From a virus, in IMG/VR virus record IMGVR_UViG_3300025626_000004: DNA of 64,000 nt; one strand, 5' to 3'. Shown piece after piece: positions 1 through 45,002 of the stretch. Numbering within the stretch: position 1 is the stretch's first letter; each line of letters opens with the position of its first letter. A model generated the notes under the pieces. That model did no database searches. It was given only the letters and a program-made list of their open reading frames with translations, and was not told the origin of the DNA. A program made the position numbers and the translations under genes.

Positions 1-1938
1 GAAGGCGGAGTATTCACACGCGTGTCTGATACCAACATAGACTATGGTACAAGATACAATACAGCGGTTGCTCACCCAGATGGTGCATCGAGCCTATTCA
101 CTGATGGTGAAGGTAAAATGACTGGCACATTCTTTATTCCTAACACAGATGCTATTAAGTTCAGGGCTGGTTCAAGAGAGCTTAAACTTCTTGATATTAC
201 AGCGCCTAACGAAGAAGATGCGTCTTCTGTAGGTATTGCATTATTTGTTGCTCAAGGTGTTATCGAAACGTTCCAAAGAGATGTTCTTTCAACTCGAATT
301 CTTGGTGTATCTTCTGAAAGATCAACTGTAACATCTAATAGAGTTGTTACAAGTAGTTGGTCAGCCCCACCTGTGCGAGTTCGCTGGTCAGATCCAGTAG
401 CCGAATCATTCTTAGTAACAGAAACAGATGGTGTATTTGTAACAAAGATTGATGCATACTTTAAAACAAAAGATACTAGCATTCCAGTTCAAATGCAATT
501 GCGTCCAATGGTTAACGGTAGCCCATCATCTGATACAGTTATACCTGGATCGGTTGTGTTTGTGTCACCGTCTAATGTTAATATTTCTGACGATGCTACT
601 TCTGCAACAACCTTTACATTTGAAGAACCAATATTCTTAAATCCTTATACTGAATATGCTGTAGTGTTCCTTGCAGAATCTATTAACTACAATATGTACA
701 TCGCAAAAACAGGTGAGTTTATACTTAACTCTACTGAGAAGCGTATTACATCTCAACCATATCTTGGTTCGTTCTTTAAATCTCAGAATGCATCAACATG
801 GGAACCAGATCAAACTATGGATCTTATGTTTAAAATTCATAAGGCAACATTTAGTACTGCAGGTGGTTATGCTGTACTTGAAAATACTGGTACTGTAAGA
901 AATGCATTACCGGAATTTCCTGTACAAGTTAACTCAACTAATAATAAAGCAACTATTACACACCCAGGACATGGTTTCCAGGTAGGTGATGTTGCAGAGC
1001 TGTTTGGATTTGATTCCGCTCTTAAGTATGGTGGTATTCTTGGTACTGGTATCATGGGTCCAAGAACTATTACTGCATACGACGAAAACACTTATACGTT
1101 TGCTATGGACTCGAATGGTAATAACGATGCAGCAGTTGGCGGTACAGCTATTACTGCTAAATCTCAAATACCGTTTGAAACTCTTATCCCACAAATTGAA
1201 AATATTATTCCAGCCTCTACAAGTATAAATGTGACCGGTAAATTCATGACAGGCAAATCTACTGCCGGTGAAGAAACTCCGTACTCGAAGGATCTAAATT
1301 ACTCGGCACTTGCACTAAGACAAAATAACTTCTTTAACTCTCCTAGGCTTGTTGCTACTGAAACAAATGAGATATCAAATCTTGCGACTGGTACTAAGTC
1401 TGTTGAAGTTAAAATTGATATGAATACAGCAACAACTTTTGTTTCTCCGGTTATTGATATGCAAAGAACATCGCTTTGGGCTATTCATAACATTATTGAT
1501 AACCAGGTTGACTCTGCCGGTGCTGATACAACATTAACAAACGTGCCTAATGTGTTCACTCCAGAAACTACTGCGACAGGTGGTAGTTCGGTTGCTAAGC
1601 ATATTACTCGACCTATCACTTTGGCCGAAGATGCTGTTGGACTTAAAATCTTGTTAGCAGCTAACAGACCTTCTGTTTCAGATTTTCGAGTCTATTACAA
1701 AGCAATTTCAGATGATGCATTGTTTACTGAGACGCCGTGGACAGAAACAACTAAGATCAATAATCTACCTACAGATGAAAATCCTTTGATCTACCGTGAC
1801 TATGAATATTTGGTTGGTGGTAATGCCGGACTATCAGCACCATTCACTAAGTTCCAAGTAAAAATTGTTATGACTTCTTCTAATAATGCTAAGGTTCCGA
1901 CATTCAAAGATCTACGAATTATCGCCTTGGCAGTGTGA
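1..1938 (+). CDS. Large virion structural protein, C-terminal part (VrlC/DUF4815-like; 5' end outside window)
   Basis: Frame is open from the window edge; DPVAESFLV..GVFVTKIDAYFKTKD..PVQMQLRPMVNG.P and terminal F.KFQVKIVM.S.N.AKVP.FKDLRIIALA resemble the large tail-region protein of marine T4-like phages. Confidence 0.7.
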   Translation, partial: EGGVFTRVSDTNIDYGTRYNTAVAHPDGASSLFTDGEGKMTGTFFIPNTDAIKFRAGSRELKLLDITAPNEEDASSVGIALFVAQGVIETFQRDVLSTRILGVSSERSTVTSNRVVTSSWSAPPVRVRWSDPVAESFLVTETDGVFVTKIDAYFKTKDTSIPVQMQLRPMVNGSPSSDTVIPGSVVFVSPSNVNISDDATSATTFTFEEPIFLNPYTEYAVVFLAESINYNMYIAKTGEFILNSTEKRITSQPYLGSFFKSQNASTWEPDQTMDLMFKIHKATFSTAGGYAVLENTGTVRNALPEFPVQVNSTNNKATITHPGHGFQVGDVAELFGFDSALKYGGILGTGIMGPRTITAYDENTYTFAMDSNGNNDAAVGGTAITAKSQIPFETLIPQIENIIPASTSINVTGKFMTGKSTAGEETPYSKDLNYSALALRQNNFFNSPRLVATETNEISNLATGTKSVEVKIDMNTATTFVSPVIDMQRTSLWAIHNIIDNQVDSAGADTTLTNVPNVFTPETTATGGSSVAKHITRPITLAEDAVGLKILLAANRPSVSDFRVYYKAISDDALFTETPWTETTKINNLPTDENPLIYRDYEYLVGGNAGLSAPFTKFQVKIVMTSSNNAKVPTFKDLRIIALAV

Positions 1939-2165
1939 TGAATAATAGATATATAAAAATAGAAGGCTCCGCTAATATGGTCAAGGACCGAAATACTGGT
2001 GCTGTCATAAATACAAGTAGAGCTGATATAGAAAGAGCACGTGCGGCAAAGCGCAAAAGGCTTGAAGAAGAACAAGAGATTAATAATCTTAAAGATGACG
2101 TAAGTCACATGAAAAAAGACATGGCAGATATCAAGACTTTGCTAAAACAACTGGTGGACAAGTAA
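1935..2165 (+). CDS. Small conserved T4-like phage protein with coiled-coil C-terminus
   Basis: YIKIEG..NMVKD.NTGAVINT motif; overlaps upstream stop. Confidence 0.65.
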   Translation: MMNNRYIKIEGSANMVKDRNTGAVINTSRADIERARAAKRKRLEEEQEINNLKDDVSHMKKDMADIKTLLKQLVDK

Positions 2166-2528
2166 ATGGCAGTAACTACAATTGACCTAAACGACTTAGT
2201 TAGTATTTGGCGGACCAAGACTAATACAATTAGTACACATCTAGGTGACATCGCAACTCTTACTACTACAGCAAACGGAAATGTTGTTGTCGCCATTAAT
2301 GAATTAGAAGCTAACCACAATACTTTACAAACTGCATTTGATAATCGACAAGACGGTACAGATTCTGCGGCTGTTCAACAAATGATTGATACAAGCATTG
2401 CTACCATTAATGGTAATACACTTATTAATGGTACTGTGGGTGGAGCCAAGTTAACATCAGCCACAACTTTAAATATAATTGACTCAAACGGAACGACAGT
2501 TAAAACGATTATTGGCGCAGGTGCTTAA
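2166..2528 (+). CDS. Putative tail/fibre-associated structural protein
   Basis: N-terminal W+.KTN and LTTTA..NVVVAINEL motifs typical of phage fibre N-termini; abuts previous gene. Confidence 0.55.
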   Translation: MAVTTIDLNDLVSIWRTKTNTISTHLGDIATLTTTANGNVVVAINELEANHNTLQTAFDNRQDGTDSAAVQQMIDTSIATINGNTLINGTVGGAKLTSATTLNIIDSNGTTVKTIIGAGA

Positions 2529-3517: not shown

Positions 3518-3535
3518 TATAATGAGAGGTTTATT

Positions 3536-7238: not shown

Positions 7239-7583
7239 ATGGCACAATATGAAGAACTTCAAATCGATAAAGGCACTGATGTAACAGTTCAATTGGAATT
7301 GGAAGACACTAGTGGTAACCCGAAGAATCTTACGAACTACACTGTTGCGGGTAAAATTAAAAAAACCTACAGTTCAACAGATTCGACAGCATTTACGACT
7401 GAGATCCAAGCACCTTCAACAGCTGGTGTTGTAAATCTAAGCCTAACGAATGTGCAAACAAATGCTCTAAAAGCCAGTAGATACGTATACGATGTTGAGA
7501 TTTCTTTTGTAGACAGTGATTCAAACACTGTTGTAGAAAGAGTCCTTGAAGGCACAATTGAAGTTACGCCGTCCGTAACATAA
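7239..7583 (+). CDS. Small virion structural protein (baseplate/fibre adaptor-like)
   Basis: L.IDKGTD, NLTNYT, LSLT..QT.AL...RYVYDVEI, RVLEG.IEVTPSVT, as in marine T4-like phages. Confidence 0.7.
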   Translation: MAQYEELQIDKGTDVTVQLELEDTSGNPKNLTNYTVAGKIKKTYSSTDSTAFTTEIQAPSTAGVVNLSLTNVQTNALKASRYVYDVEISFVDSDSNTVVERVLEGTIEVTPSVT

Positions 7584-7598: not shown

Positions 7599-10500
7599 AT
7601 GAAGGTCGTTATCGGAACGAATACCATCGTAAAAAAAGTTACTGTCGGAACACCACTTAGAATTGGTTCTGCAGCAAACGGTAGTCTTACCGGATTAGAT
7701 GATGTTAATGGCTCAATAAATCTAGCTGACGGTACAATTCTTCAGTATGATTCGGCTTCTGCCAAATTTAATCACATATCATTATCTGCGGTTGTAGGTG
7801 GTGGACTTACTGTTTCTTCATCAGGCATGGGTTCAGTATCGGAGACTGGCGGAACACTAACATATGTTGGACCTAGCGTTGATAGCGTTCGATCACTATT
7901 TAATGTTACCTATGACAGTAGTGCTATTGGCACACTAATTACGACAGGTGGAACCACTAGACTAACAGGTCCTACACCTAATCAAATTCGTAGTCAATTT
8001 AGTGCCGGAAATGATTTACAATATAACGCTGCTACAGGTGAATTCTCTGTTACGGTCCCAAGCGGATCAGCTGGGTTTGACAGTAACTTCAACACGAAGT
8101 CTACAACAAATCTACCAGAAGGTTCTAACCTATATTATACTGACTCTCGTGGGCGAGCATCTATTTCTGTTAATGATGCAGGCGGATATGGCTCACTTGC
8201 GTATAATGCTCCGACAGGTATATTAACCTATACTGGCCCAAGTCTTGCTGATATAAGATCTGGAATTAATGTTGGTGCGAACTTAGCATACGATTCTGCT
8301 ACAGGTAAAATTACATTTACTGGTTCGTTAGGCGGAACATTCGATTCTGACAATGCGCGTAAGTCAATTAGTGTTGTTGATGCCGGTGGACAAGGTTCGC
8401 TTTCATACAACAATAACACAGGTCAAATATCATACCAAGGAGCGAGCGACTCTGATACGCGCGGGTTGATTAGTGCAACTGGTGATATTGCTTATAATCA
8501 AAACACAGGCATCATTAGTTTTACTGAAAAAACTGATGCACAAATACGAGGGTTGTTTAATGTCAGTGGGGACCTTGGTTACGATACTGGTACTGGTGTA
8601 TTTTCTGTTGATCTCGGATCGGTGGATGTAACTGATTCTGCAGTTACTCGAGCACTATTTTCTGTTACAAACGATGCCGGTGATTACGGGTCACTTGCTT
8701 ATAACGCCGCGTCTGGACAATTTGTATTTACAAAGGTTACTGACTCTGATATAAGAGGATCTTTATCTGCAGCCGGCGATTTGGCATACAATCAGACAAC
8801 AGGCCAATTCAGTTATTCTAAACGAACCGATGCCGACATTCGCAGTTTGTTATCTGCATCAGGCGACCTATCATATAATTCTGGTACTGGTCAATTCAGT
8901 ATTACAACAGGTGCACATTATCAAGACTCAGATGCACGGCATGCCATTAGCTTTAGACACACTGCAGACTCAATTGCTAATGTCAATGAATATGGAACAG
9001 TAACGTACAACCAAACAACCGGTGACGTCGTAATATACGGTACGCGTGATTCTGATATTCGTGGATCGATGAGTTTTGTTGATGCTGGTGGATTAGGTTC
9101 ACTTGCATACAATGAAAATGAAGGTCGAGTTACATATACAGGACCAAGCAATACTGATATCGCCGGAACATTATCGGCTACGACAGATCCTCTCTCAATG
9201 GGTAAACTTACTCTTGATTCTAGCAAAGGCCAGTTTACACTTAAGCTAGAAGATGATAGTGTTAGAGCTTTATTCAGCGTTGTTTCTGATCAACAAGGTG
9301 GAGCGGATCTAACATATGATTCTGCGACAGGTCAATTTGTATTCAGTGGTCCAAGCGATCTCGATCTTAGAAGCAAAATAAGCGTTATCGATGCTGGCGG
9401 TGACGGTTCCCTTACATACTTTGAATCGGGTGGTGTGTTTACATACACCGGTCCAAGTCCTGCCGAAGCACGTGCGCACTTTAGCGGCGGCCTTGGAGTA
9501 AATTATAACGAAGCAACCGGCACATTTAGACTTGACAGCTCTGCAAATATTGTAACTGGTAGCATTGTTACAGGTCAATTAACTTCGGGTATAGTTAATG
9601 CTAACGCCGAATTAAATGCCAATACAATAAACGCGCTGACGGACTCAAGTAATATTACTATTACTGGTAATGCTATTACTCTTAAAGGTACATCAGATCG
9701 CATCTTGCTCGACACTCAGTTTCTTCATACAACAGACAATAGAATTATTTTCGCGGTTGATGATAGTAATACTGCTAACTACCAAGGTGGTGGTTTTCAG
9801 ATTGGTGGCGGGTCAAATTCAAAATATTTTGCCTATAGCGTAGCTAATGATTTCTTTGCTACAAATACTGGTTTGTATATTCCGGGTGATATGTCTGGTA
9901 AGACAATTGACTCGTTAAACAAACGTATAGATGAGCTTCCTGACTCTGCGCAAATGAAAGGTATCCTTTCTGCTGGTCCTGGATTATCCTACGATAATAC
10001 TAACGGCATATATCGGATTATCTCCTCAGGCGTCACAGCAGCCACGTATGGCAACGCCACAAACGTATCTCAGCTTACTGTTGACTCTCTAGGCATTATA
10101 ACTGGTGCAGTTAATACTCCTATATCAGTTGTAACCGGAAATACTTTTGATTCTGTAACCGGTCAGTTAACTATTACGACTGCAACAGACAGTTTTAATT
10201 CTACCATAACGCTAGATCCATTTAGTACAACAAACTTGGCCGAAGGCAATAAACTATATTACACAAGAGCTAGGTTTGACTCGGCACTTGGAGATGCGGC
10301 TTCTACTGCTACTGTTAGATCATATATCAGTGCTGGACAAAGTTTAAACTACAATCCTACAACAGGCGTAGTTTCAACTAATCAGGCACTTGATTCAACC
10401 AGTAATGTTACTTTTAATAATATAGTACAGACCGGCACATTACAAGGACCTGCAGATTTTATTATTGATCCGGCTGCGCACGGCGATGCAACTGGTACGG

Positions 10501-11483: not shown

Positions 11484-11816
11484 ATGGCAGCAACATTCGA
11501 AAATGGTTTTGCGACAGTTGGAAGCACAGAGGCAACTTTGTACACTGCGCCATCTGGTTTATCTGGAATACATTTAGTTGTAGGCTTCATTGCAACTAAT
11601 ATATTTGGCTCAGCCTTGCCAATTACTGTGAAATTGGTTAGGGGTGGTAACACATACTACCTCGCTTATAACAGACGAGTACTACCAAATGATACTATAG
11701 ACCTTTTGATGGATACTAAAATTTCACTTAAGGTTGGAGACCTTATTAAAGTCTCTGCTCCGTTGGATAATGCATTCAGCGCGATGATTACCGTAACCGA
11801 GGAAATATTAACATGA
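11484..11816 (+). CDS. Small virion structural protein
   Basis: TLYTAP...KISL..GD.IKVSA pattern of small fibre-associated proteins; late promoter. Confidence 0.6.
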   Translation: MAATFENGFATVGSTEATLYTAPSGLSGIHLVVGFIATNIFGSALPITVKLVRGGNTYYLAYNRRVLPNDTIDLLMDTKISLKVGDLIKVSAPLDNAFSAMITVTEEILT

Positions 11817-17507: not shown

Positions 17508-17519
17508 GGAAAATCTAGA

Positions 17520-18506: not shown

Positions 18507-18530
18507 GGTAAAGAGATATGGAAAAATATA

Positions 18531-19670: not shown

Positions 19671-19678
19671 GATTTGAC

Positions 19679-20605: not shown

Positions 20606-20610
20606 GATAA

Positions 20611-23402: not shown

Positions 23403-23472
23403 GAAAACGTTTATATATAAACGTATAATGATGATGACTATTCATTTATAATTAATTCTTGTGAGGTGCAAA

Positions 23473-28978: not shown

Positions 28979-28980
28979 AG

Positions 28981-33893: not shown

Positions 33894-33896
33894 ACC

Positions 33897-34775
33897 ATGG
33901 CCAGAAATTTATATTTCTCTGACGCGGTTAAATCCGAGCAGAGACTATACGAAGATATTATTATTGAATCTCTGAAAATGTATGGGCAAGACCTATACTA
34001 TTTGCCTCGGACTATTGTTAACGAGAATAAAATTTTTGGTGAAGATGTTCCTTCAAAATTCAATAATAGTTATAAAATAGAAATGTACATCGACAACAGC
34101 GATGGGTTCGAAGGAGAAGGCGATCTATTCAGTAAGTTTGGTGTCGAGATTAGAGACGAAGCTACATTTACTGTTGCAAAGAAACGATGGAACCACACTG
34201 TCGGACGCAATAATAATGAGATAACAGGTGAGCGTCCACGTGAGGGTGATTTGATTTATCTCCCTATGACCAATTCAATGTTTGAAATCACACATGTTGA
34301 ACATGAATCACCATTTTATCAATTAGCAAATTTACCTACTTTTAAAATGAGATGTTCACTGTTTGAATATAGTGATGAAGATCTTGATACTGGTTTGAAT
34401 ACAATAGATGGTATTGAGCAAAATCACGCATATGAATTTGATCTTACTCTATCAGGAGTCACCGGTGATTTTGAGGTTGGTGAGAGAGTACGACAGACGA
34501 CTGCTAGCGGAGTTATATTATCAGGTGAAGTATCAAGTTGGGTATCAAGCACCAATGCTCTATCAATTATTCACTTTGGTGGAAACGATGGTAAGTTCCA
34601 TTTGCCGGTTACAACTCTTACGGTCACCGGAGATGACACTAATGCAGTTGGAACCCTTACATCCTTTGTTGAAGACAATAAGCTATCTGAAAATGAACAA
34701 AATACGACGTTTGATACTGTCGGAGCTGGATTCTTAGACTTCAGTGAAAGCAATCCGTTTGGAGATCCTAGCTAA
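33897..34775 (+). CDS. g14: Neck protein gp14
   Basis: ESLKMYGQD.YYLPR, FSKFG.EIRDE, RPREGDLIYLP, DFSESNPFG. Confidence 0.92.
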   Translation: MARNLYFSDAVKSEQRLYEDIIIESLKMYGQDLYYLPRTIVNENKIFGEDVPSKFNNSYKIEMYIDNSDGFEGEGDLFSKFGVEIRDEATFTVAKKRWNHTVGRNNNEITGERPREGDLIYLPMTNSMFEITHVEHESPFYQLANLPTFKMRCSLFEYSDEDLDTGLNTIDGIEQNHAYEFDLTLSGVTGDFEVGERVRQTTASGVILSGEVSSWVSSTNALSIIHFGGNDGKFHLPVTTLTVTGDDTNAVGTLTSFVEDNKLSENEQNTTFDTVGAGFLDFSESNPFGDPS

Positions 34776-35560
34776 TGTTTGGTACATATTTTTATCATCA
34801 GCGTACGCGCAAAGCAGTTGCAACATTTGGAGCAATGTTTAACAATCTATACGTTCTAAGAAAAGATGCTGGTGGTGGAGTAATTAGTACTCAAAAGGTT
34901 CCATTATCATATGGACCTAGAGCAAAATTTCTTGAGCGTATTAGGGAAAATGCTGATCTTGAAACCGATACTAAGGTTGCTATTAAGTTACCAAGAATGT
35001 CTTTCGAAATTACTAACGTATCTTATGACCCTTCAAGGCAATTGCCTAAAGTAAATAACTATGCAAAAGCTGTAGCAGGCGGGTCAGTTCTTTCTAGACA
35101 AAAAATTTATGCTGGCAGTCCATATATTATGAGCTTCCAACTTAGCATATATGCAAAAAATCAGGATGACGCACTACAACTAGTTGAGCAAATTATTCCG
35201 TATTTTAACCCACAATATACATTATCAGTTAAACCGTTTGACGATTTTTCTGATGTTAAAGAAGACGTACCAGTCGTTTTAACTGGCGTAGTCCTAAATG
35301 ACGACTATGAAGGACCCATGGAAGGTCGAAGATCAATTATCTACACTTTAGATTTTGATATGCATATAACATTCCATGGACCGACATCAACAAGTGGAAT
35401 TATTACTAAGTCTATTACTAATATTTTCAACCAAACCGCAGGCTTACTTGATAGCGATTTACCACTTGAATCAATTACTGTAACCCCAACTCCTACTGGC
35501 GTCGGGCCAGATAGCGACTTTGGATTCCTTGAAGTGATAGCAGAGATAGATAGTGCATAA
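34775..35560 (+). CDS. g15: Tail sheath stabiliser/completion protein gp15
   Basis: MFGTYFYH, KVPLSYGP..KFL, LPRMSFEI, QIIPYFNP. Confidence 0.92.
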   Translation: MFGTYFYHQRTRKAVATFGAMFNNLYVLRKDAGGGVISTQKVPLSYGPRAKFLERIRENADLETDTKVAIKLPRMSFEITNVSYDPSRQLPKVNNYAKAVAGGSVLSRQKIYAGSPYIMSFQLSIYAKNQDDALQLVEQIIPYFNPQYTLSVKPFDDFSDVKEDVPVVLTGVVLNDDYEGPMEGRRSIIYTLDFDMHITFHGPTSTSGIITKSITNIFNQTAGLLDSDLPLESITVTPTPTGVGPDSDFGFLEVIAEIDSA

Positions 35561-35913
35561 TGGATAAAAATCAAGCCGATGACGATTTCGAAATGGTTCG
35601 TCAAACATATCATGATCTATTGTCAAAAGGTGGATCTTCATTAGAAGATATGATGGAGGTTGCGAGAGCGACAGAACATCCTAGAGCCTTTGAAGTATTA
35701 TCTGGTATGATGAAAAATATGGCAGACATTAGTGGTAATCTTATGGATATGCATAAGAAGAAAAAAGAATTTCATACTAATGATAAAGCACCTGTAGCAA
35801 TTGAGGGTGGAACTACTAACAACGTGTTTGTCGGATCAACGACTGAACTGCAACGTATGTTACAAGATGTAAATGATGAGAAAATTATAGATGTATCTCC
35901 AACCAAAGAATGA
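35560..35913 (+). CDS. g16: Terminase small subunit gp16
   Basis: EHPRAFEVL, TTNNVFVGSTTELQ.ML. Confidence 0.9.
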   Translation: MDKNQADDDFEMVRQTYHDLLSKGGSSLEDMMEVARATEHPRAFEVLSGMMKNMADISGNLMDMHKKKKEFHTNDKAPVAIEGGTTNNVFVGSTTELQRMLQDVNDEKIIDVSPTKE

Positions 35914-37501
35914 AACATATCTTGGCAATGTAAATGTTAAACGAGACGGAGTCGTTCAACAATGGACTAACGAGCAAGTAGCAGAATATGCTAAATGCAT
36001 GAAGAATCCAGCTTATTTTACAACCACATATTGTAAGGTTATATCACTAGACGATGGCTTAGTGCCTTTTAACTTGTATCCTTATCAAGAAAAAATGTTT
36101 AAGCACTTTAACGAGAATAGATTTAATATCGTTCTTGCATGCAGACAATCTGGAAAGTCAATCAGTTCGGTTGCGTATTTACTTTGGTATGCATTATTCC
36201 ATTCTGAAAAGGTTATTGCTGTTATGGCAAATAAGGGTGCGACCGCACGTGAGATGTTAGGTCGTATTACTCTTATGCTAGAAAATCTACCTTTCTTCTT
36301 ACAACCGGGTTGTAAGGCTTTGAATAAAGGTTCAATCGAATTTTCAAATAATTCTCGGATAATTGCTGCAGCGACATCCGGTTCGTCAATTCGTGGTATG
36401 TCAGTCTCACTGCTATATCTTGACGAGTTTGCATTTGTGGAAAATGATGCTCAGTTTTATACATCAACCTATCCTGTTGTGTCTGCTGGTAAAAATACTA
36501 AAGTTATTATTACATCAACCGCTAATGGTATTGGTAATGTGTTTCATAAGATATGGGAATCAGCACTACAAGGCGTAAGCGAATTTAAACCTATGAGGGT
36601 TGATTGGTGGGACGTTCCTGGTCGAGATAAGGCTTGGCAAGAACAAACGATTAGTAATACATCCCAACTTCAATTTGATCAAGAGTTTGGTAATACATTT
36701 TTTGGCACCGGTGATACACTTATTAACGGCGAAACATTACTTAAGCTTAGAGCCGAAAACTATAAGCTGCACCGTGAAGGTGGAGATCTTTTAATATACG
36801 AAGAGCCTATTAAAGGTAACGAATATATTATGTTATGTGACGTCAGTAAAGGAAGAGGACAGGACTATTCTACGTTCAATGTGATCGACATTAGCTTACG
36901 CCCATTTAAACAGGTGGCTGTATATCGCAACAATACTATCTCTCCATTACTCTTCCCCGATATTATTTATAAATGGGCAGTTTCCTACAATCAGGCATAT
37001 GTAGTTATTGAATCAAATGATCAAGGTACCGTTGTATGTAATGGATTGTACCAAGATCTAGAATATGAAAATATGCATGTAGAATCAGCGGTCAGGTCTG
37101 ATGGGCTAGGTGTTGAAATGAATCGTAAAACTAAAAGGCTTGGTTGTTCGGCGTTCAAAGATATACTTGAGAGCAATAAATTACATATTGTAGACCAGAA
37201 TACTATTATGGAAATATCTACATTCACTGCTAAGGGGCAATCCTACGAGGCTTCTTCGGGTAACCATGATGACTTGGTTATGAATCTTGTTATGTTTGGT
37301 TACTTTATTTCTACTCAGTATTTTCAAGATATGACTGATATTAATATCAAAGAAATGATGTTTAAAAGAAAAATGCAAGAAATTGAAAACGATTTACCGG
37401 GGTTTGGTTATATCGATGATGGATTAGATAATAATATATTAAGGGCCGAGGATGAAGATTCCCCTTGGGCAATCGAATACGAAGCAACTACACACTTCTA
37501 A
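35891..37501 (+). CDS. g17: Terminase large subunit gp17
   Basis: CRQSGKS Walker A, LDEFAF Walker B, DVSKGRGQDYS, HDDLVM. Confidence 0.96.
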   Translation: MYLQPKNETYLGNVNVKRDGVVQQWTNEQVAEYAKCMKNPAYFTTTYCKVISLDDGLVPFNLYPYQEKMFKHFNENRFNIVLACRQSGKSISSVAYLLWYALFHSEKVIAVMANKGATAREMLGRITLMLENLPFFLQPGCKALNKGSIEFSNNSRIIAAATSGSSIRGMSVSLLYLDEFAFVENDAQFYTSTYPVVSAGKNTKVIITSTANGIGNVFHKIWESALQGVSEFKPMRVDWWDVPGRDKAWQEQTISNTSQLQFDQEFGNTFFGTGDTLINGETLLKLRAENYKLHREGGDLLIYEEPIKGNEYIMLCDVSKGRGQDYSTFNVIDISLRPFKQVAVYRNNTISPLLFPDIIYKWAVSYNQAYVVIESNDQGTVVCNGLYQDLEYENMHVESAVRSDGLGVEMNRKTKRLGCSAFKDILESNKLHIVDQNTIMEISTFTAKGQSYEASSGNHDDLVMNLVMFGYFISTQYFQDMTDINIKEMMFKRKMQEIENDLPGFGYIDDGLDNNILRAEDEDSPWAIEYEATTHF

Positions 37502-37506
37502 TTTAT

Positions 37507-37514
37507 TATAAATA
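37507..37514 (+). promoter_or_regulatory. T4-type late promoter upstream of g18
   Basis: TATAAATA. Confidence 0.8.
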
Positions 37515-37578
37515 GTTGTAAGTGAAAAATCTTCTTATTATGGATCGCATATAATTAAATTTTCGAGAGGAACGAAAA

Positions 37579-39318
37579 ATGGCATTTTCAGAATCTCCGG
37601 CAATTACCGTTAGAGAAGTCGACGCGTCTGGCACAGTGCCTGCAGTATCTTCTTCCACTGGTGGATTTGTTGGTAATTTTAGATGGGGCCCAGTAAACAC
37701 TCCAACACTCATTTCAAATGAGTCTGGTCTGGTTACTACCTTTGGTGCACCATCACAGATAAACTCGGTTGATTTCCATTCAGCCGCATACTTTTTAAAG
37801 TATACAAACGCATTACAAGTTGTACGGGTCCTAGGTGACTCTGACGGATTTAATGCATATAGCGTAGAAGCTGGTGAAGCAGTAACTGGTAAAAATGTTC
37901 GTATCACGAACCCAGATCAGTTCGACACTGCAAAAACTGGCCTCGACAGCGACAAGCATACATTTATTGCACGTTGGCCTGGATCTTTGGGCAATAGCCT
38001 TCAAGTATCCGTGTGTCCAAATGCTACAGCACCTACAGTATTTACTGGTTGGACACATCAAGCAAGCTTTGACGCTGCTCCTGGTACATCTAACTTTGCT
38101 GAAGGCTTGAATGCAACTAACGATGAGATGCACGTAGCAGTTATTGACCAAGATGGTCTATTTACTGGCACTCGTGGAACTGTTCTTGAAACATTTCCAT
38201 TCTTATCAGTTGCTAAGAACGCAAAAACATCTGACGGTTCAACGAACTTCGTTAAAGACGTAATCAACAGAAGTTCTAGATATATCTGGTGTGCTGGTTT
38301 TGATTCCGACTATACTGTTGCTTTGGCTGGCCAAGATGCTGTTGATTCTCGTGATTTCCAAAAATCTTCTGCTGCACAGATTATCAAAGATTATTCTTTG
38401 ACCCAAGGTGACGAATCAGAGAACATGGACGTCGGTGATTATATCACTGGTTACGACAATTTTGAAGACAAAGACAATATCCAAGTTGATATGTTGATTG
38501 CTCCTCAAATGGCTTCGCGTACAGACACCACAACAATAGTTAACGACCTAGTAAGTATTGCACAAGGCACTCGTAAAGACTGTGTTGTTGTTACATCACC
38601 TGCTCGTTCAGACATTATTGGTTCTGCTACTCCGGTTACTAATACGACTGCAACTGCCGCAACATTCACATCATCTTCATATCTTATAGTTGATAACAAC
38701 TATCTTAAAGTGTATGACAAATACAATGATGAGTTCATCCATATTCCGGCTGCGTCTTCGACTGCTGGTATTATGGCAGCGACTGATGTAAGCGCAGCTG
38801 CATGGTATTCACCAGCTGGTCCACGTCGTGGTCAGTATCTTGGTGTAACAGGTATTGCATACTCTCCTAATAAAGCAGAGCGTGACGTACTATACAGAAA
38901 CAGTGTTAATCCAATTGCTAATATTCCTGGTCAAGGTCTATTACTCTTTGGTGACAAAACTAAATTGGCCCGTCCATCAGCATTTGATCGTATTAACGTA
39001 CGTCGTTTGTTCCTGGTTATTGAGCGAGCGATTGCTTTGGCTGCGCGTAACGTTATGTTCGAATTCAATGATGAATTTACAAGAGCAGAATTTACAGGTA
39101 CAGTCGAACCATTCCTACGCGACATTAAAGGCCGTCGTGGTATTACTGACTTCCGTGTTATTTGTGACGAAACAAACAATACTGGTGCAGTTATAGATAG
39201 AAATGAATTCGTCGCTACTGTCTTAGTCAAACCTGCTCGTTCCATCAACTTTGTTACACTTAACTTTGTTGCTGTACGTACTGGCGTAGACTTCTCAGAA
39301 GTCGCTGGCGCGGTATAA
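37579..39318 (+). CDS. g18: Tail sheath protein gp18
   Basis: SP...VREVD, F.WGP, WYSPAG..RG, FDRINVRRLF, KPARSINFVTLNFVA. Confidence 0.96.
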   Translation: MAFSESPAITVREVDASGTVPAVSSSTGGFVGNFRWGPVNTPTLISNESGLVTTFGAPSQINSVDFHSAAYFLKYTNALQVVRVLGDSDGFNAYSVEAGEAVTGKNVRITNPDQFDTAKTGLDSDKHTFIARWPGSLGNSLQVSVCPNATAPTVFTGWTHQASFDAAPGTSNFAEGLNATNDEMHVAVIDQDGLFTGTRGTVLETFPFLSVAKNAKTSDGSTNFVKDVINRSSRYIWCAGFDSDYTVALAGQDAVDSRDFQKSSAAQIIKDYSLTQGDESENMDVGDYITGYDNFEDKDNIQVDMLIAPQMASRTDTTTIVNDLVSIAQGTRKDCVVVTSPARSDIIGSATPVTNTTATAATFTSSSYLIVDNNYLKVYDKYNDEFIHIPAASSTAGIMAATDVSAAAWYSPAGPRRGQYLGVTGIAYSPNKAERDVLYRNSVNPIANIPGQGLLLFGDKTKLARPSAFDRINVRRLFLVIERAIALAARNVMFEFNDEFTRAEFTGTVEPFLRDIKGRRGITDFRVICDETNNTGAVIDRNEFVATVLVKPARSINFVTLNFVAVRTGVDFSEVAGAV

Positions 39319-39331
39319 GGGGAGATAGAAA

Positions 39332-39859
39332 ATGGCTATTTTAGGCGTAGACGATTTTAAAGCAAAACTAGCAGGTGGTGGCGCTCGCCCCAATCTGTTT
39401 AAAGTTACACTTGGTTTTCCAGGTTATGCTGGCGGTGATGTTGAATTAACATCATTCATGTGTAGAACAGGACAGCTTCCGGGTTCAACGGTTCCGGCCG
39501 TACCGGTGGCTTTTAGAGGACGTCAATTGCAAATTGCAGGCGATCGTACCTTTGAACCATGGTCAGTAACAATTATCAATGACACGAACTTCACGGTTCG
39601 TGACTCAATGGAACGTTGGATGAACGGTATTAACGCACACGGCGCTAATACTGGTCTAGTTAACCCAACTGATTATCAAGCAGATCTTAAAGTTGATCAA
39701 CTTGATAAAGACGAAAGTATATTGAAAACATACAACTTCGTTGCTGCTTTCCCAACATTGATCTCACCGATTGAATTGGCATATGATGCCAATGATGCGA
39801 TCGAAGAGTTTAGTGTAGAGTTTGCATATCAGTACTGGACATCTAACACCACTTCTTAA
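39332..39859 (+). CDS. g19: Tail tube protein gp19
   Basis: GGGARPNLF, FRGR...AGDRTFEPW, IEEF.VEF.YQYW. Confidence 0.95.
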   Translation: MAILGVDDFKAKLAGGGARPNLFKVTLGFPGYAGGDVELTSFMCRTGQLPGSTVPAVPVAFRGRQLQIAGDRTFEPWSVTIINDTNFTVRDSMERWMNGINAHGANTGLVNPTDYQADLKVDQLDKDESILKTYNFVAAFPTLISPIELAYDANDAIEEFSVEFAYQYWTSNTTS

Positions 39860-39865
39860 TGGTGA

Positions 39866-39873
39866 TATAAATA
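39866..39873 (+). promoter_or_regulatory. T4-type late promoter upstream of g20
   Basis: TATAAATA, followed by a hairpin at about 39876-39907. Confidence 0.7.
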
Positions 39874-39923
39874 TTAGGTTGGCAGTCTTTAAGGTTGCCA
39901 ACCTTTTAAAATAGGATGGAATT

Positions 39924-41450
39924 ATGGCTGAAGAACAAGGCTTAAATATATTTGGATTTGAAATCCGTAGGAAGAGACAAAAAGAAGAAGATAAAAAACT
40001 TCCTTCTATTGTTCCTGCTACTGATGACGATGGCGCTGGTTATGTTACCGCGTCTGGTATGCACTATGGCCAATTCATTAATTTAGATGGTGATGAATCT
40101 AAAGATAATGCTCAGCTAATAATGAAATATCGTGGAGTATCAGCACACCCTGAGGTTGATGCTGCAATTGAAGATATTACTAATGAATCTATTTCAGCGT
40201 CAGAAGGTGAATCGGCACTTGAAATTAGACTAGACAAGGTTGAAGTATCTGATCAAATAAAAAAGGGTATTACCGAAGAATTCGAAAACATCGTGTCGAT
40301 GCTAAATTTCAATGAAATTGGTCACGATATGTTTAAACGTTGGTATGTAGATGGACGTCTATATCACCACCTTGTTGTTAACGAAGCGAACCTTAAAGCT
40401 GGCATCCAGGAAATTCGTCCTATTGATGCCTCTAAAGTTCGTAAAATTAAACAAGTTAAAAAGAAAAAAGATCCAAAGACTGGTGCATTGATCGTCGAAA
40501 AGACTGATGAGTATTACTTGTATCAAGAAAAACCAGGAAGTACCTCGTCTGGTATTAAACTATCTAACGATTCCGTTAGCTATGTTACATCTGGTCTATT
40601 AGATGCTAGCCGTAAGAAAATTGTGTCACATCTGCATAAAGCTTTGAAGCCAATCAATCAACTTCGTATGATGGAAGACTCACTCGTCATCTATCGGCTT
40701 GCACGAGCGCCTGAGCGTAGAATATTCTATATTGATGTGGGTAACTTGCCTCGTGGTAAGTCCGAACAATATATGAAAGACATCATGGCCCGGTATCGTA
40801 ACAAGTTGGTCTATGACGCTGATACAGGAGCAGTTAAAGATGATCGCAAACATATGTCGATGCTTGAAGATTTTTGGCTGCCACGTCGCGAAGGTGGTCG
40901 TGGTACAGAGATCTCAACTTTACCAGGTGGCGAAAACCTCGGACAAATAGATGACATCGTATATTTTCAAAAGAAATTATATAAGTCTCTTAATGTTCCT
41001 ATTGGTAGGCTTGAATCAGAAGGTCAATTTTCTTTAGGTAGAGCAACCGAGATCTCACGAGATGAGTTGAAATTTCAGAAATTCATTGATAGACTACGTA
41101 AAAGGTTTGCACATCTATTCACTGGTATTCTAAAAACTCAGTTAATTATGAAAGGTCTTATTACTGAAGAAGACTGGGATTCATGGAAAAACGATATCTT
41201 TATCGATTATTCGCGTGATAACCATTTCACAGAACTTAAAGATGCTGAGCTATTAAGAGATCGTTTAACAACCCTAGATCAGGCTTCTCAATATGTTGGT
41301 GAATACTTCTCAAAAGAATATATTATGAAAAAGATTCTTATGCTAAGTGATGAGGATATTAAAGATATGGCAAAACAATCAGCCGAAGAACCTGATCCAG
41401 AGCCAGCAGACAATAAAGAAGAGACTCCAGAAGTTAAGCCTGGAACGTAG
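39924..41450 (+). CDS. g20: Portal protein gp20
   Basis: WYVDGR, LRMMEDSLVIYRLARAPERRIFYIDVGNLP, EDFWLPRREGGRGTEI. Confidence 0.97.
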   Translation: MAEEQGLNIFGFEIRRKRQKEEDKKLPSIVPATDDDGAGYVTASGMHYGQFINLDGDESKDNAQLIMKYRGVSAHPEVDAAIEDITNESISASEGESALEIRLDKVEVSDQIKKGITEEFENIVSMLNFNEIGHDMFKRWYVDGRLYHHLVVNEANLKAGIQEIRPIDASKVRKIKQVKKKKDPKTGALIVEKTDEYYLYQEKPGSTSSGIKLSNDSVSYVTSGLLDASRKKIVSHLHKALKPINQLRMMEDSLVIYRLARAPERRIFYIDVGNLPRGKSEQYMKDIMARYRNKLVYDADTGAVKDDRKHMSMLEDFWLPRREGGRGTEISTLPGGENLGQIDDIVYFQKKLYKSLNVPIGRLESEGQFSLGRATEISRDELKFQKFIDRLRKRFAHLFTGILKTQLIMKGLITEEDWDSWKNDIFIDYSRDNHFTELKDAELLRDRLTTLDQASQYVGEYFSKEYIMKKILMLSDEDIKDMAKQSAEEPDPEPADNKEETPEVKPGT

Positions 41451-41456
41451 AAAACG

Positions 41457-41464
41457 TATAAATA
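41457..41464 (+). promoter_or_regulatory. T4-type late promoter
   Basis: TATAAATA upstream of prohead core genes. Confidence 0.75.
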
Positions 41465-41486
41465 ATACCAAATATGAGGAAATATT

Positions 41487-41732
41487 ATGAACCCTATTGA
41501 AACATTAGTTCAACAATCATTTGATAAAGATTTTAATTCTGCGAATAAAACTTTTACACAGATCATGAATGACCGGATGGACAATGCGCTAGAACAAGAA
41601 CGAATTAAAGTATCTGCTAGTATATACAATGGTGTCGATGCTGAACAGCTTGAGTTAGATCTAGAAGATGATAACACTGAAGAAGTAGTATCTGTCGAAA
41701 ATGAAGAACAAGCAGATGAAGACGAAGTATAA
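41487..41732 (+). CDS. Prohead core protein (gp67-like)
   Basis: Small acidic protein between g20 and g21. Confidence 0.6.
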   Translation: MNPIETLVQQSFDKDFNSANKTFTQIMNDRMDNALEQERIKVSASIYNGVDAEQLELDLEDDNTEEVVSVENEEQADEDEV

Positions 41733-41931
41733 AGAGTTAAAGTATGATTTAAGCGAAGCAGTTAAAAAGCGACGCACAGTTTATAACCGTAGATTAAATG
41801 GTTATAAAGTTGAAATTGTACAAAATTATGATAAGTTTACTGCTTATATTGATGGTGATAAATTAGACGTATATGATACTAAACAGCATGCGCAAAAAAT
41901 GCTTATGCAGATGGTAAGAGAATTGGACTAA
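41716..41931 (+). CDS. Small head-region protein (gp68 position)
   Basis: Synteny; LSEA resembles a gp21 cleavage site. Confidence 0.45.
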   Translation: MKTKYKELKYDLSEAVKKRRTVYNRRLNGYKVEIVQNYDKFTAYIDGDKLDVYDTKQHAQKMLMQMVRELD

Positions 41932-41937
41932 ATCACT

Positions 41938-42597
41938 ATGAAGTTAATTACAGAATACGTAGAACACGATATCGAAATGATTGTTGAAGCCAAAGAAGGC
42001 GGAGGCAAGAATTACGCTATCGAAGGCGTATTTGCACAAGCAGAATCAAAGAACCGTAATGGACGCATTTATCCAAGAGCAATTATGGAAAATGCTGTAA
42101 ACAAATACGTTACGGATCAAGTAAAAACTAAGCGAGCAGTTGGCGAGTTAAACCATCCTGATGGTCCCACTGTAAACTTAGATAAAGTATCCCACCTAAT
42201 TACAGATCTCAGATTTGAGAAAAATAATGTGGTAGGTAAGGCACAAATACTAGATACTCCGATGGGTAAGATTGTTAAAGGTCTACTTGACGGTGGTGTT
42301 CAGCTAGGAGTGTCGACTCGTGGTATGGGTAGCATTGAGCAACGTGGCAACGCCATGTATGTGAAGGAAGACTTTCTTCTTAATACGATTGACATCGTAC
42401 AAGATCCATCAGCACCAAACGCCTTTGTTAATGGGATTATGGAAGGTGTAGACTGGATCTGGAATAACGGTATTCTGGAAGCTCAAGACATTGAAAGAAT
42501 GGAGACTGAAATTAAAAAAGCTCCACGCGCTGATCTCTATGAGACTCAGACTCGTGAGTTTAAGAATTTCCTCTCGTTAATGAAAAGTAAAATATAA
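41938..42597 (+). CDS. g21: Prohead protease gp21
   Basis: MKLITE, NRNGRIYP, GELNHP, GVSTRGMGS, DIVQDPSAPNAFV. Confidence 0.95.
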   Translation: MKLITEYVEHDIEMIVEAKEGGGKNYAIEGVFAQAESKNRNGRIYPRAIMENAVNKYVTDQVKTKRAVGELNHPDGPTVNLDKVSHLITDLRFEKNNVVGKAQILDTPMGKIVKGLLDGGVQLGVSTRGMGSIEQRGNAMYVKEDFLLNTIDIVQDPSAPNAFVNGIMEGVDWIWNNGILEAQDIERMETEIKKAPRADLYETQTREFKNFLSLMKSKI

Positions 42598-42612
42598 TAT
42601 AGGAGTCAAGAC

Positions 42613-43653
42613 ATGACTGACCAAATCCAAGATCAGGATGTTGAGCTCGACGAGAATGAAATCGAAGAAGCTCACGATCCAAAAAATGCAGAGGCACAAT
42701 CTATTGCATCTGTACAATCTGCAGAAGACAAGGGACCTAAAGCGAAAGCTCGTAAGGGTGACAAGTCTAATTCAGAAAAAATGCCAAAAACAAAAGCTGG
42801 TATGATTAATGCGGCGTACAACAAAATGGCTGGTATGAAAAAAGAAGACCTTGCCGGTGCGCTAACACAACTTATGGGTGAAGATGTTGACCTAGATGAC
42901 GAAGCACTTGTTGCCGAAGCATCAAACGTTGATTTTTCAGAAGATTTAAATGCATTAGTCGAGTCTGAAGCTACTCTTTCCGAAGAGTTTAAAGCCAAAA
43001 CAGCTGTTATTTTCGAAGCCGCAATTAAATCTAAATTGGCCGAAGAAGTAACTCGTTTAGAGGCTAGCTACGAAGAAGAGCTAACGGAAGCAGTATCTTC
43101 CACTAAAGCCGAACTCGTAGAAAAAGTTGACAGCTATCTTAACTATGTTGTTGAAAACTGGATGAAAGAAAATCAGTTAGCAGTACAAAATGGCCTGCGC
43201 ACTGAAATCGCTGAAAAATTCATGAACAGCTTGAAAGATCTGTTTACTGAGTCTTACATCGAAGTTCCAGAATCAAAAGTCGACCTGGTTGACGAACTTG
43301 CTCAAGAAGTAGAAGAGCTTGAAGAAGCCCTTAATAAATCTACTCAAAAAGCAATAGAAGTTTCTGAGGAATTGGAAGTAATGAAGCGCGCCACTGTAAT
43401 TAGTGAAGCGTCTGCTGATCTTGCAACTACTCAAGCTGAGAAACTTGCATCGCTTGTAGAAGATATTGATTTTGTAGATGTGGCTACTTTCACTGCGAAA
43501 GTCCAGACTATTAAAGAATCATACTTCACAAAAACAATTGTTGAGTCTTCAATTGATGAAGAAATTGACGACGCAGATGGAGACTTCGTTGAAGCACCAT
43601 CAGACGTAATGTCTCAATATATTTCCGCTATTAGACAATCGTCTAAAACATAA
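42613..43653 (+). CDS. g22: Prohead scaffold protein gp22
   Basis: LSEEFKAK..VIFEAA, VDSYLNYVVENW, GLRTEIAE.F; acidic coiled coil. Confidence 0.92.
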   Translation: MTDQIQDQDVELDENEIEEAHDPKNAEAQSIASVQSAEDKGPKAKARKGDKSNSEKMPKTKAGMINAAYNKMAGMKKEDLAGALTQLMGEDVDLDDEALVAEASNVDFSEDLNALVESEATLSEEFKAKTAVIFEAAIKSKLAEEVTRLEASYEEELTEAVSSTKAELVEKVDSYLNYVVENWMKENQLAVQNGLRTEIAEKFMNSLKDLFTESYIEVPESKVDLVDELAQEVEELEEALNKSTQKAIEVSEELEVMKRATVISEASADLATTQAEKLASLVEDIDFVDVATFTAKVQTIKESYFTKTIVESSIDEEIDDADGDFVEAPSDVMSQYISAIRQSSKT

Positions 43654-43673
43654 ATACCTAGGAGTTCCTAAAA

Positions 43674-45002
43674 ATGCAATCTTATGATAAACTAGTCGAA
43701 AAATGGGCACCAGTTCTGAATGAAAATTCAGCCGGTTCCATCGACAATCACCACAAACGTTCTGTAACCGCAGCCGTTCTCGAAAACCAAGAAATTGCTA
43801 TGCGTGAAGATCGCGCTGCGCAAAACGGTTTCCTAACAGAAGCTGCACCTGGTAACGCAACTAGCTCAATTGGTACATGGGATCCAGTACTGATTAGCTT
43901 GGTACGTCGTTCCATGCCAAACCTGATGGCCTATGATGTTGCTGGCGTTCAGCCAATGTCCGGTCCAACTGGCCTCATCTTTGCGATGAAAGCCCGTTAC
44001 GGTGCTGGTGCAACTGGTTCAACCGAAGCTCTCTTCAACGAAGCTAACACAGAATTCTCTGGTTCACAAGCCGCTAACGGTTTCACACAACCTGCTGATG
44101 GTTCTGGCCTTAACGATTCTGCTGGTGCCGCAAACGGTATTGACGATGAGCGTACAACTGCTCTTTCTGGCAATCCAATGGGTACTGACTCTGCTGAAGC
44201 TCTTGGTTCTGCAAACAATGCTGCGTTTGCTGAAATGGGTTTCACCATTGAAAAAGCAACTGTGACCGCCAAGTCACGTGCACTGAAAGCTGAATACAGC
44301 TTAGAGCTTGCACAAGACTTGAAAGCGATTCATGGTCTTGACGCAGAAACTGAATTGGCAAATATCTTGTCAACTGAGATTCTTGCTGAAATCAACCGCG
44401 AAGTAATTCGTACAATCAACTCACAAGCCAAAACTGGTGCACTGCAAGCTAACACAGCTGTAAACGGTATCTTTAACTTGTCTTCTGATGCTGATGGTCG
44501 TTGGTCTGCTGAGAAGTTCAAAGGTCTGGTTGTACAAATCGAACGTGAAGCAAACGTAATTGCAAAAGAAACTCGTAGAGGAAAAGGTAACTTTATTATC
44601 TGTTCTTCAGACGTAGCTTCTGCTTTGACTGCTTCCGGCATGCTCGATTATACTCCTGCTTTGTCAACTAACTTGAATGTTGATGACACAGGTTCAACCT
44701 TTGCTGGTGTTCTTAATGGTCGTACAAAAGTATACATCGATCCGTATGCAACTGTTGACTATATCACTGTTGGTTATAAGGGTACAAACCCATATGATGC
44801 AGGTCTCTTCTATTGTCCATACGTACCACTCACAATGGTTCGTGCGGTTGGTGAAGATACGTTCCAGCCTAAAATTGGTTTCAAGACACGCTACGGCATG
44901 GCTTCTAACCCATTCGTTGGTGCGACTCCTGCTGACGGTCTTGCAACTGCAAAAACCAACCAGTACTACCGTATCTTCCGTGTAGACAACATCCTCACAT
45001 AA
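43674..45002 (+). CDS. g23: Major capsid protein gp23
   Basis: LVRRSMPNL.AYDV.GVQPM.GPTGLIFAM, KSRALKAEYS.ELAQDLKAIHGLDAE, QPKIGFKTRYG. Confidence 0.98.
   Translation: MQSYDKLVEKWAPVLNENSAGSIDNHHKRSVTAAVLENQEIAMREDRAAQNGFLTEAAPGNATSSIGTWDPVLISLVRRSMPNLMAYDVAGVQPMSGPTGLIFAMKARYGAGATGSTEALFNEANTEFSGSQAANGFTQPADGSGLNDSAGAANGIDDERTTALSGNPMGTDSAEALGSANNAAFAEMGFTIEKATVTAKSRALKAEYSLELAQDLKAIHGLDAETELANILSTEILAEINREVIRTINSQAKTGALQANTAVNGIFNLSSDADGRWSAEKFKGLVVQIEREANVIAKETRRGKGNFIICSSDVASALTASGMLDYTPALSTNLNVDDTGSTFAGVLNGRTKVYIDPYATVDYITVGYKGTNPYDAGLFYCPYVPLTMVRAVGEDTFQPKIGFKTRYGMASNPFVGATPADGLATAKTNQYYRIFRVDNILT

Follow-up and report, generated by a model that had tools for sequence, protein, structure and literature searches.

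The dipeptide Asp-Ser (DS) is strongly over-represented in the giant tail-fibre proteins encoded in a 64-kb window, the term used here for the whole 64,000-nucleotide stretch of IMG/VR record IMGVR_UViG_3300025626_000004 that was analysed, which is a portion of a T4-like marine myovirus genome. A first-pass annotation of this DNA had reported DS enrichment in exterior virion proteins at large and had proposed that the dipeptide is the sequon of a phage-encoded O-glycosylation system based on ADP-heptose. The observation is real but narrower than had been stated. Inheritance of the DS signature follows the proteins themselves and does not depend on the ADP-heptose/GT9-like/carbamoyltransferase cassette lying beside them; the distribution of the genes contradicts the heptose explanation. 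The reading that needs the fewest assumptions is a structural one: in one group of marine T4-like phages, DS quite possibly stands at module starts, marking the beginnings of helices and the tight turns with which small fibre building blocks open. The DS residues may instead be a tag for some phage-encoded modification, and an enzyme set other than the heptose cassette co-occurs with the signature.

The numbers of DS and DT expected in each protein were obtained from composition-preserving shuffles. The tail fibre of 1275 amino acids (aa) (7599..11426, plus strand; PHROG 697 'structural protein'), which consists of about 20 units of 34 aa and of non-repeat parts, contains 34 DS against 11.0 expected and 3 DT against 11.2 (p<0.001 each), with a composition of 11.5% Ser and 11.8% Thr. 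DS tops the enrichment among all 400 dipeptides in this protein and the signal is directional, since the reverse pair SD (10 occurrences) is not enriched. The 1323-aa tail-fibre/adhesin protein (12143..16114, plus strand), which has N-terminal CBM5/12 repeats (Pfam CBM_5_12) and matches PHROG 9851 'tail fiber protein' at E 8e-209, has 17 DS against 8.1 (p=0.001) and 3 DT against 8.8 (p=0.013), giving 51 DS against 19.2 for the two giants together. Five small proteins around them carry a pooled 14 DS against 4.2 (p=1e-4). The count is 3 against 0.7 in a 114-aa protein resembling L-shaped tail fibre assembly proteins (7239..7583, plus strand), 4 against 1.1 in a 102-aa protein between fibre and adhesin (11813..12121, plus strand) and 5 against 1.3, four of them as DSD, in a 229-aa protein of unknown function (22686..23375, plus strand; PHROG 9740). 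The residues favoured directly after DS are A, S and D.

Pooled counts for other gene sets define the limits of the phenomenon. Six Cys-rich paralogues (16593..22676, plus strand) give a weak signal of 9 against 4.8 (p=0.06), and the 15 against 11.7 of the baseplate region is not significant. The core virion genes gp13-gp23 (33141..45002, plus strand; identities from Pfam) served as an internal control, and here gp13-15 and gp18-23 together have 14 DS against 16.8, whilst the non-structural genes have 36 against 42.5. Taken singly, gp15 (3 against 1.4), gp18 (4 against 3.5), gp20 (3 against 2.9) and gp23 (2 against 1.7) are at chance level, gp43 has 4 DS and gp17 has 1, and the median observed/expected ratio over 395 large open reading frames (ORFs) of related loci is 0.86. 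On these pooled counts the excess is a property of the fibre module (7239-23375) and does not extend to 'exterior virion proteins' as a class. The DS counts originally given for the fibre, the adhesin, the 229-aa protein, gp43 and gp17 were exact, and the claim of enrichment holds for the fibre-module giants and the five small proteins, not for gp13-15 and gp18-23. The DS of gp15, gp18 and gp23, which had been taken as part of the enrichment, are chance occurrences, and a coat over the whole virion is not borne out by the head, neck, sheath, tube and portal proteins, all of which are at expectation. A DS said to be kept upstream of a Y[YF]G.D motif in four Cys-rich paralogues is indeed found, aligned, in four of the six, at a distance of 8-11 residues.

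Masking the 20 units defined by a hidden Markov model leaves 18 DS against 4.2 in the remainder of the fibre, with 16 against 7.0 inside the units, and a pure repeat artefact was therefore dropped as the sole cause; the excess survives correction for both composition and repeats, as had been required of it. A cause at the DNA level, in which GAY followed by TCN makes GANTC, was also discarded because the Ser codons of DS show the gene-wide TCN:AGY ratio, AGY being used there as often as elsewhere in the gene.

Placement and conservation of DS

Pfam finds no domain in the 1275-aa fibre, and searches against PDB sequences yielded calmodulin-like matches only, none of them significant. The approximately 20-copy unit of 34 aa reads [YF]-T-G-P-S-x-x-[DE]-x-R-x-x-[IF]-S, followed by an optional DAGGxGS loop and then L-x-Y-[ND]-x-x-T-G-x-[FI]-x-[YF]. 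It holds two fixed slots for DS, one after the S/T cap, where T-DS-D-I-R alternates with T-DA-D-I-R and S-PT-E-V-R, and the other in the Y-[ND]-x turn, and such fixed slots support the structural reading. Support also comes from an AlphaFold2 (AF2) monomer model of fibre residues 170-640, for which the mean predicted local distance difference test score (pLDDT) was 39 and of which local secondary structure alone was used: DS lies at helix N-termini at 5 of 12 sites, and at 3 of 12 it is at a strand end or forms the first turn residue of a 4-residue hairpin. Three types of site would be involved, namely the end of a beta-strand and start of a tight turn in Y-D-S-x-T-G hairpins, the [WFY]-D-S-x-x-x-Y openings of CBM5/12-like repeats and the first turn of short helices of the form T-D-S-D-I-R-x-x-[IL]-S. 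The Asp would cap the turn or helix in the manner of an Asx-type cap, the Ser would be small enough for places that the beta-branched Thr does not fit, and DS would stand where the small building blocks that make up mosaic fibres begin. The 34-aa unit is also contained in the tail fibre of CRP-207, a Roseobacter podophage (MZ892987, L117: 28013-29863), and the building block therefore crosses phage families and host phyla.

The optional loop, D-A-G-G-D-G-S-L-x-Y after a short helix (window 8100-9520 and 10830-11135), is weakly EF-hand-like (calmodulin E ~0.1). It has a bearing on the suggestion that DS pairs are Ca2+ or Mg2+ ligands stabilising trimeric fibres in sea water, since in the unit the loop may run on as D-A-G-G-D-G-S-L-x-Y-D-S. 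This is very unlikely, however, given that the EF-hand match is not significant, that the majority of DS sites fall outside the loop and that the DAGGxGS insertion is missing from half of the units.

Eleven full-length fibre homologues from IMG/VR contigs (50-85% identity) all show DS observed/expected ratios of 2.9-3.7, and DT ratios of 0.3-0.55 in every one. At approximately 24 of the 34 sites, 10 or more of the 12 homologues have DS, and identity in the fibre alignment is 92% at the D of DS, compared with 75% at other Asp, and 86% at the S, compared with 65% at other Ser. The two residues are thus as conserved as Gly and Tyr and more so than other Asp and Ser, which argues for the structural reading. 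The DS-rich fibre of contig G022, which is not homologous to that of the window, contains 18 copies of A-I-N-E-L-DS-D-I-G-x-R-S-S-L-T and so repeats the DS-D-I..R..S-L core found at the module start in the window's unit, whilst in the divergent adhesins of loci L010 and L018 many DS open CBM5/12-like repeats; both are further evidence for a module-start role. The same can be said of the adhesin tree, in which DS-richness follows clade: the DS-rich members form a single clade (support 100) and the sister clade is DS-poor with the heptose cassette (L044, L050, L103 and L047) or without it (L016/L017).

The cassette-less L016/L017 lineage is a mosaic, with a fibre from the window's DS-rich family and an adhesin from the DS-poor sister clade, and modules have therefore been exchanged between phages of different DS habit. 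Its DS-poor adhesins were considered as an effect of the missing cassette, an idea dropped when the tree showed cassette-positive members of the sister clade to be equally DS-poor. Similarly, the DS apparently 'lost' from its 102-aa protein is due to a 15-residue deletion that is also present in cassette-positive L018. The 114-aa protein has FVDSDS in all clade members, cassette-less L017 included.

The mosaic nature of the fibre genes, together with the internal repeats that supply DS in the window fibre, in the G022 fibre and in a collagen-like protein of L059, raises the question of whether the excess is a neutral by-product of the amplification and shuffling of DS-bearing repeat units, with no selection on DS. 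Such an origin is improbable, as conservation is higher at the DS residues than at other Asp and Ser, the excess remains outside the repeats, new DS positions have been gained in different adhesin subclades and the codons for the Ser of DS are diverse. The L059 protein (3484-7950; 1488 aa, 22% Gly) is a phage protein in which G-x-y runs are broken by repeated GA-DS-TV-GPTG; this outlier (12 DS against 2.4) was set aside as unrelated to the window's proteins and as a separate route to a high DS count.

A number of observations weigh against the structural reading. DS sites in the adhesin turn over between subclades at a density that stays 2-3.5 times expectation, which looks like selection for the dipeptide itself, and D-S-[A/D/S] recurs in proteins that are not homologous and that differ in structural context. 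Of the window's own 34-aa units only about half contain DS, and the Ser is therefore not structurally obligatory; outside the phage group the unit works with no DS at all, as in L072 (PS[SNA][SA]EVR and YDNTTG) and in CRP-207 (PSASETR, YNSGTG). The excess is even stronger outside recognisable units, at the 18 against 4.2 given above, the structural placement depends on the low-confidence monomer model, and the remaining proteome shows no excess although it is rich in helices and turns. If the structural reading holds, DS would be a signature by which building blocks can be spotted and delimited in the otherwise unannotatable giant fibres of marine T4-like phages.

The heptose cassette and DS-rich fibres

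Pfam identifies gp14, gp15, gp17, gp18, gp19, gp20, gp21, gp23 and a family-B polymerase in the window, arranged in T4 order. The closest GenBank record is phage C48C1 (Kyanoviridae; OQ984149), with ~75% nucleotide identity at gp23, and the nearest relatives belong to the Kyanoviridae and marine T4-like phages; the window also encodes hemO and pcyX-type genes. Upstream of gp13 the fibre module runs from baseplate genes through the 114-aa assembly-like protein, the 1275-aa fibre, two small proteins, the CBM5/12-bearing adhesin, a gp9/10-like protein and the six Cys-rich paralogues to the 229-aa protein. To its 3' side lie a 324-aa protein (23461..24435, plus strand), the transferase proposed in the first-pass annotation, and a NodU/Nol-type carbamoyltransferase (24377..26236, plus strand; Pfam Carbam_trans_N and Carbam_trans_C, NCBIfam NodU). 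Heptose-nucleotide genes follow on the minus strand, encoding a GmhB-like phosphatase (26658-27302; PRK08942), an HldD-like epimerase (27292-28164; TIGR02197), an HldE kinase-domain protein (28058-28978; TIGR02198) and a heptose-1-phosphate adenylyltransferase-like protein (32663-33064). This run (26658-33064) is interrupted by plus-strand hemO and pcyX-like genes and by a minus-strand 5-aminolevulinate synthase gene (hemA). There is also a second, truncated Carbam_trans_N protein (31442-32320), which is retained even in cassette-less L016/L017.

For four of the five enzymes of the ADP-heptose pathway there are thus candidates by best NCBIfam match (GmhB, HldD, HldE kinase and adenylyltransferase), with E values of 3e-30 to 5e-69 and scores that fall short of the equivalog cut-offs. 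No gene for GmhA (SIS) occurs within the 64 kb, and a WbuC-like cupin gene (32317-32718, minus strand) occupies the place where cultured cyanophages have a 'phosphoheptose isomerase'. The 324-aa protein scores 11.1 bits against Pfam GT9 (PF01075; cut-off 22, E=0.25) and its orthologue in contig G005 scores 15.5 bits. A fold search was needed because a sequence-profile search against the PDB found nothing. The AF2 model (pLDDT 83, predicted template-modelling score 0.86) is predicted to have a GT-B fold, the nearest solved structures being glycosyltransferase family 9 (GT9) enzymes, and the best Foldseek matches are 3tov (GT9), TibC, WaaC and WaaF (E 1e-9 to 1e-7, up to 6e-7; template-modelling score 0.5-0.65). 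With the pathway families and the GT9-fold model in place, the enzymatic premise of the proposed glycosylation appears sound: putative ADP-heptose genes, a gene with a predicted GT9 fold and a carbamoyltransferase do lie beside the fibres. What did not hold is their link to the DS excess. The protein also lacks hallmarks of the bacterial autotransporter heptosyltransferases (BAHT): the first Rossmann strand of the model begins at residue 9 of 324, leaving no N-terminal beta-barrel, and the family has no four-Cys cluster that might form an iron finger, only Cys22 and Cys232 being common (12 of 14 sequences). In the contig of L014 a GT9-like homologue (G007:14967-15932) has two in-frame stops (TGA, TAA), and a carbamoyltransferase match in G005 (92539-94377) contains TGA and TAG; each may be a decaying gene or a sequencing error.

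In cyanomyoviruses the cassette is a mobile module of long standing, in every case sited among fibre genes. That of the window is the cassette of P-SSM2, S-SSM7 and S-CAM1, in the same position, and these cultured carriers have no DS-rich structural protein (observed/expected 0.24-1.32). Cassettes are likewise found with DS-poor fibres in G019, L044, L047, L050, L070, L072, L103 and L108. A profile search gave 80 further adhesin-family loci, of which only L037, a member of the window's clade, is DS-rich; ten lineages besides it have GT9-like and carbamoyltransferase genes no more than 10 kb away and are not DS-rich. The cassette thus fails to predict DS, in the three cultured phages and G019 as in about ten IMG/VR lineages. 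The converse expectation, that enrichment would be confined to phages with GT9 and heptose genes, is contradicted by DS-rich, DT-poor giants in three large contigs (G010, G021 and G022) and two complete genomes (G031 and G025), none of which has a GT9-like gene or a heptose kinase. C48C1 is without the GT9-like and kinase genes of the cassette and yet has DS-rich fibres, and G010 (135 kb), which in addition is without the large carbamoyltransferase and HldD, still has 33 DS in its fibre.

In the cassette-less L016/L017 lineage the fibre keeps 33-34 DS, and the GT9-like protein of the window shares 44-48% identity with its counterparts in DS-poor lineages and only 37-40% with those of the DS-rich subclade B; both facts support the structural reading. 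Nor was any difference in gene content found near the fibres between DS-rich and DS-poor cassette-positive contigs, which share the same adhesin/Cys-rich/~230-aa/GT9-like/carbamoyltransferase module. The model in which the neighbouring GT9-like protein is a heptosyltransferase with DS as its sequon, and would use phage ADP-heptose, with or without carbamoylation, to coat the virion, is accordingly scarcely tenable. The putative pathway genes, the GT9-fold protein with TibC among its structural neighbours and the carbamoyltransferase are real, the cassette genes are always wedged among fibre genes, and in the window's adhesin clade every scorable contig, which leaves aside the fragments L009 and L011, carries the cassette. 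These points are outweighed by the DS-rich fibres without GT9-like and kinase genes, the DS-poor fibres with the cassette, a GT9-like similarity that does not track DS status, the absence of BAHT hallmarks and the core virion proteins without enrichment.

A recurrent string of genes, in the order fibre/adhesin, one to six Cys-rich proteins, ~230-aa protein, GT9-like gene and carbamoyltransferase, is seen in DS-rich and DS-poor contigs alike (window 12143-26236; L044, L047, L050, L070, L103, L010, L018). The Cys-rich proteins that precede the GT9-like gene contain 8-12% Cys and are a natural candidate for the acceptor or partner of the orphaned GT9/heptose cassette. Whichever reading of DS is adopted, the signature is separated from the cassette, whose acceptor is to be sought elsewhere.

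A Maf-like gene and a glycan-tailoring operon

A different enzyme set does co-occur with DS. In G005 a 199-aa ORF has a weak match to PF01973, the Maf (motility accessory factor) family, and a gene of this kind is present in every DS-rich genome tested (G005, G010, G031, G021, G022, G025 and C48C1) and absent from the DS-poor G029, G030, G019, S-CAM1, S-SSM7, P-SSM2, Syn33 and S-TIM4, five of them complete cyanophages. Among 50,697 GenBank phage records C48C1 is the sole carrier, and no other phage of the cultured collection shows a DS excess. The 199-aa family is large, with 876 relatives and at least 561 viral contigs, and has an N-terminal G-N-G-x-S motif; 16 of 17 members tested match PF01973 weakly (best E 0.002) and 4 of 17 match glycosyltransferase family 29 (GT29) weakly. 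The PF01973 score of 15 bits is below the gathering cut-off of 34.6, a family profile gave nothing significant against PDB sequences, and a protein atlas search with the family returned only clusters of viral hypothetical proteins.

Ten long contigs, G005 and G010 among them, were taken in full for a comparison of Maf-like gene, GT9-like gene and DS-rich ORFs. The Maf-like gene is found without a GT9-like gene in G031 (complete; one DS-rich ORF, 34 observed against 13.1 expected), G021 (24 against 10.0), G022 (33 against 9.9, 25 against 7.4 and 9 against 1.7), G025 (complete; 12 against 4.3) and G028, an incomplete contig without a large fibre that has no DS-rich ORF. Neither gene and no DS-rich ORF is present in G029 and G030, and G019 has the GT9-like gene alone and again no DS-rich ORF; in these three Maf-less genomes none of the 309 ORFs of at least 100 aa is DS-rich. 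The DS-rich proteins of G022 and G025 are unrelated to those of the window and share with them the preference for A, D or S at the following position. In G005 (23036-29224, equivalent to L270:3036-9224) the Maf/GT29-like gene is the last of an operon beside phoH, which comprises a GT8-like ORF, a sulfotransferase, a methyltransferase, two GT25 genes and a second GT8-like ORF; the two GT25, the sulfotransferase and the methyltransferase are above Pfam cut-offs and the two GT8-like ORFs are weak matches. Arrays of similar-sized ORFs precede the Maf-like gene in both complete genomes, G031 (~148100-156412) and G025 (~13750-20374). In G010 (100464-101058; L121, L122) the gene lies in two overlapping frames split near residue 106-110, either a frameshift or an assembly error.

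It is possible on this evidence, if doubtful, that D-S-(A/D/S) is the putative acceptor tag of this operon rather than of the heptose cassette, the product being carried on the Ser of fibre-module proteins. In favour are the match between gene and DS habit across the genomes, the doubly unique position of C48C1, the non-homologous DS-rich proteins of G022 and G025, the make-up of the G005 operon with its counterparts in G031 and G025, and the weak PF01973 and GT29 matches. Set against these is the identity of the portal protein to that of the window, which is 63-80% in all carriers and 48-54% or less in non-carriers, so that the pattern may reflect the ancestry of one clade and offer no independent contrast. 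The Maf-like assignment is under every threshold and is a candidate at the level of sequence; the gene is absent from the window's 64 kb and its presence in the window's genome is presumed by bracketing only. G028 has the gene without a DS-rich ORF, albeit on an incomplete contig, G010 keeps its fibre DS with a split gene, the operon could act on host lipopolysaccharide (LPS) or DNA, and the DS-rich fibre of G022 is once more a repeat with the DS-D-I..R..S-L module start. An acceptor tag for the operon is a serious and testable rival, which was ranked below the structural reading because the carriers share one portal group, the assignment is sub-threshold and other targets are possible.

The specific version, in which a miniature Maf/GT29-like initiating transferase, with GT25/GT8 extenders, sulfotransferase and methyltransferase, would glycosylate D-S-(A/D/S) on tail-fibre and outer tail proteins of one widespread group of marine T4-like phages to give a sulfated and methylated glycan, is slightly more doubtful again. 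Were it to hold, it would provide the first case of sequon-directed glycosylation of virions among phages that infect Gram-negative marine hosts. More generally, if DS is a modification tag, abundant ocean phages would sugar-coat their host-recognition organs, with effects on host range, decay, grazing and particle stickiness, and a function would be provided for the enigmatic 'LPS-like' gene clusters of cyanophages.

Comparison with known systems

The general O-glycosylation sequon of the Bacteroidota is (D)(S/T)(A/I/L/V/M/T) (PMC8550257). The fibres resemble this system in having Asp directly before the hydroxyl residue and many sites per protein, and the proposed correspondence fails in that Thr is avoided (DT 3 against 11.2 in the fibre and 3 against 8.8 in the adhesin) and the third position is at background, with A/I/L/V/M/T following DS at 17 of 34 fibre sites (background 0.40, p=0.17) and 5 of 17 adhesin sites (background 0.38, p=0.84). 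Furthermore, the taxonomy of its relatives makes this a T4-like phage of Kyanoviridae type, not a Bacteroidota phage. Virion proteins fold in the cytoplasm, and the Bacteroidota system acts on exported proteins.

The BAHT enzymes TibC and AAH act on TibA and AIDA-I, and typically have an N-terminal beta-barrel and a four-Cys iron finger (PMC4358343). These enzymes also form a dodecameric ring and heptosylate a beta-helical adhesin. The window resembles these systems in that a putative ADP-heptose donor pathway adjoins a GT-B/GT9-like enzyme with TibC among its best structural matches, and the modified residues would be Ser of repetitive, beta-rich adhesins. It differs in that the 324-aa protein has neither barrel nor finger and that the distribution of this type of GT9-like enzyme is unrelated to DS-richness. 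The 'LPS gene clusters' of cyanomyoviruses (T4-GC 302-308), the function of which was left open as 'functional or stuffer DNA' (Sullivan et al. 2010, PMC3037559), contain the same cassette of GT9-like, carbamoyltransferase and heptose genes in the same place. The fibres of the cultured carriers, however, are DS-poor.

With the Maf enzymes the 199-aa family has in common its weak PF01973 and GT29 matches and its G-N-G-x-S N-terminal motif, but its members do not reach half the length of known Maf proteins and score far under the cut-off. Maf proteins are flagellin O-glycosyltransferases that add sugars to Ser/Thr of a surface filament; we know of no DS sequon among them, and Thr is accepted too. 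Mycobacteriophages have phage-encoded glycosyltransferases that decorate their own capsid and tail-tube proteins, which is a precedent for the general idea and, to our knowledge, involves no DS motif; the targets in the window case would be different ones, proteins of the fibre module. A passage of PMC11256854 mentions virion glycosylation in mycobacteriophages. Literature searches turned up neither an account of virion glycosylation in cyanophages nor any mention of a DS signature.

The closest parallel to the structural reading is with helix N-capping boxes and Asx-turns, which reflect a preference for Asp and Ser at the N-termini of helices and within tight turns. In predicted secondary structure the window's DS sites fall at such positions, but ordinary capping does not give the kind of excess seen here, which is threefold, specific to direction and lineage and limited to one gene module.

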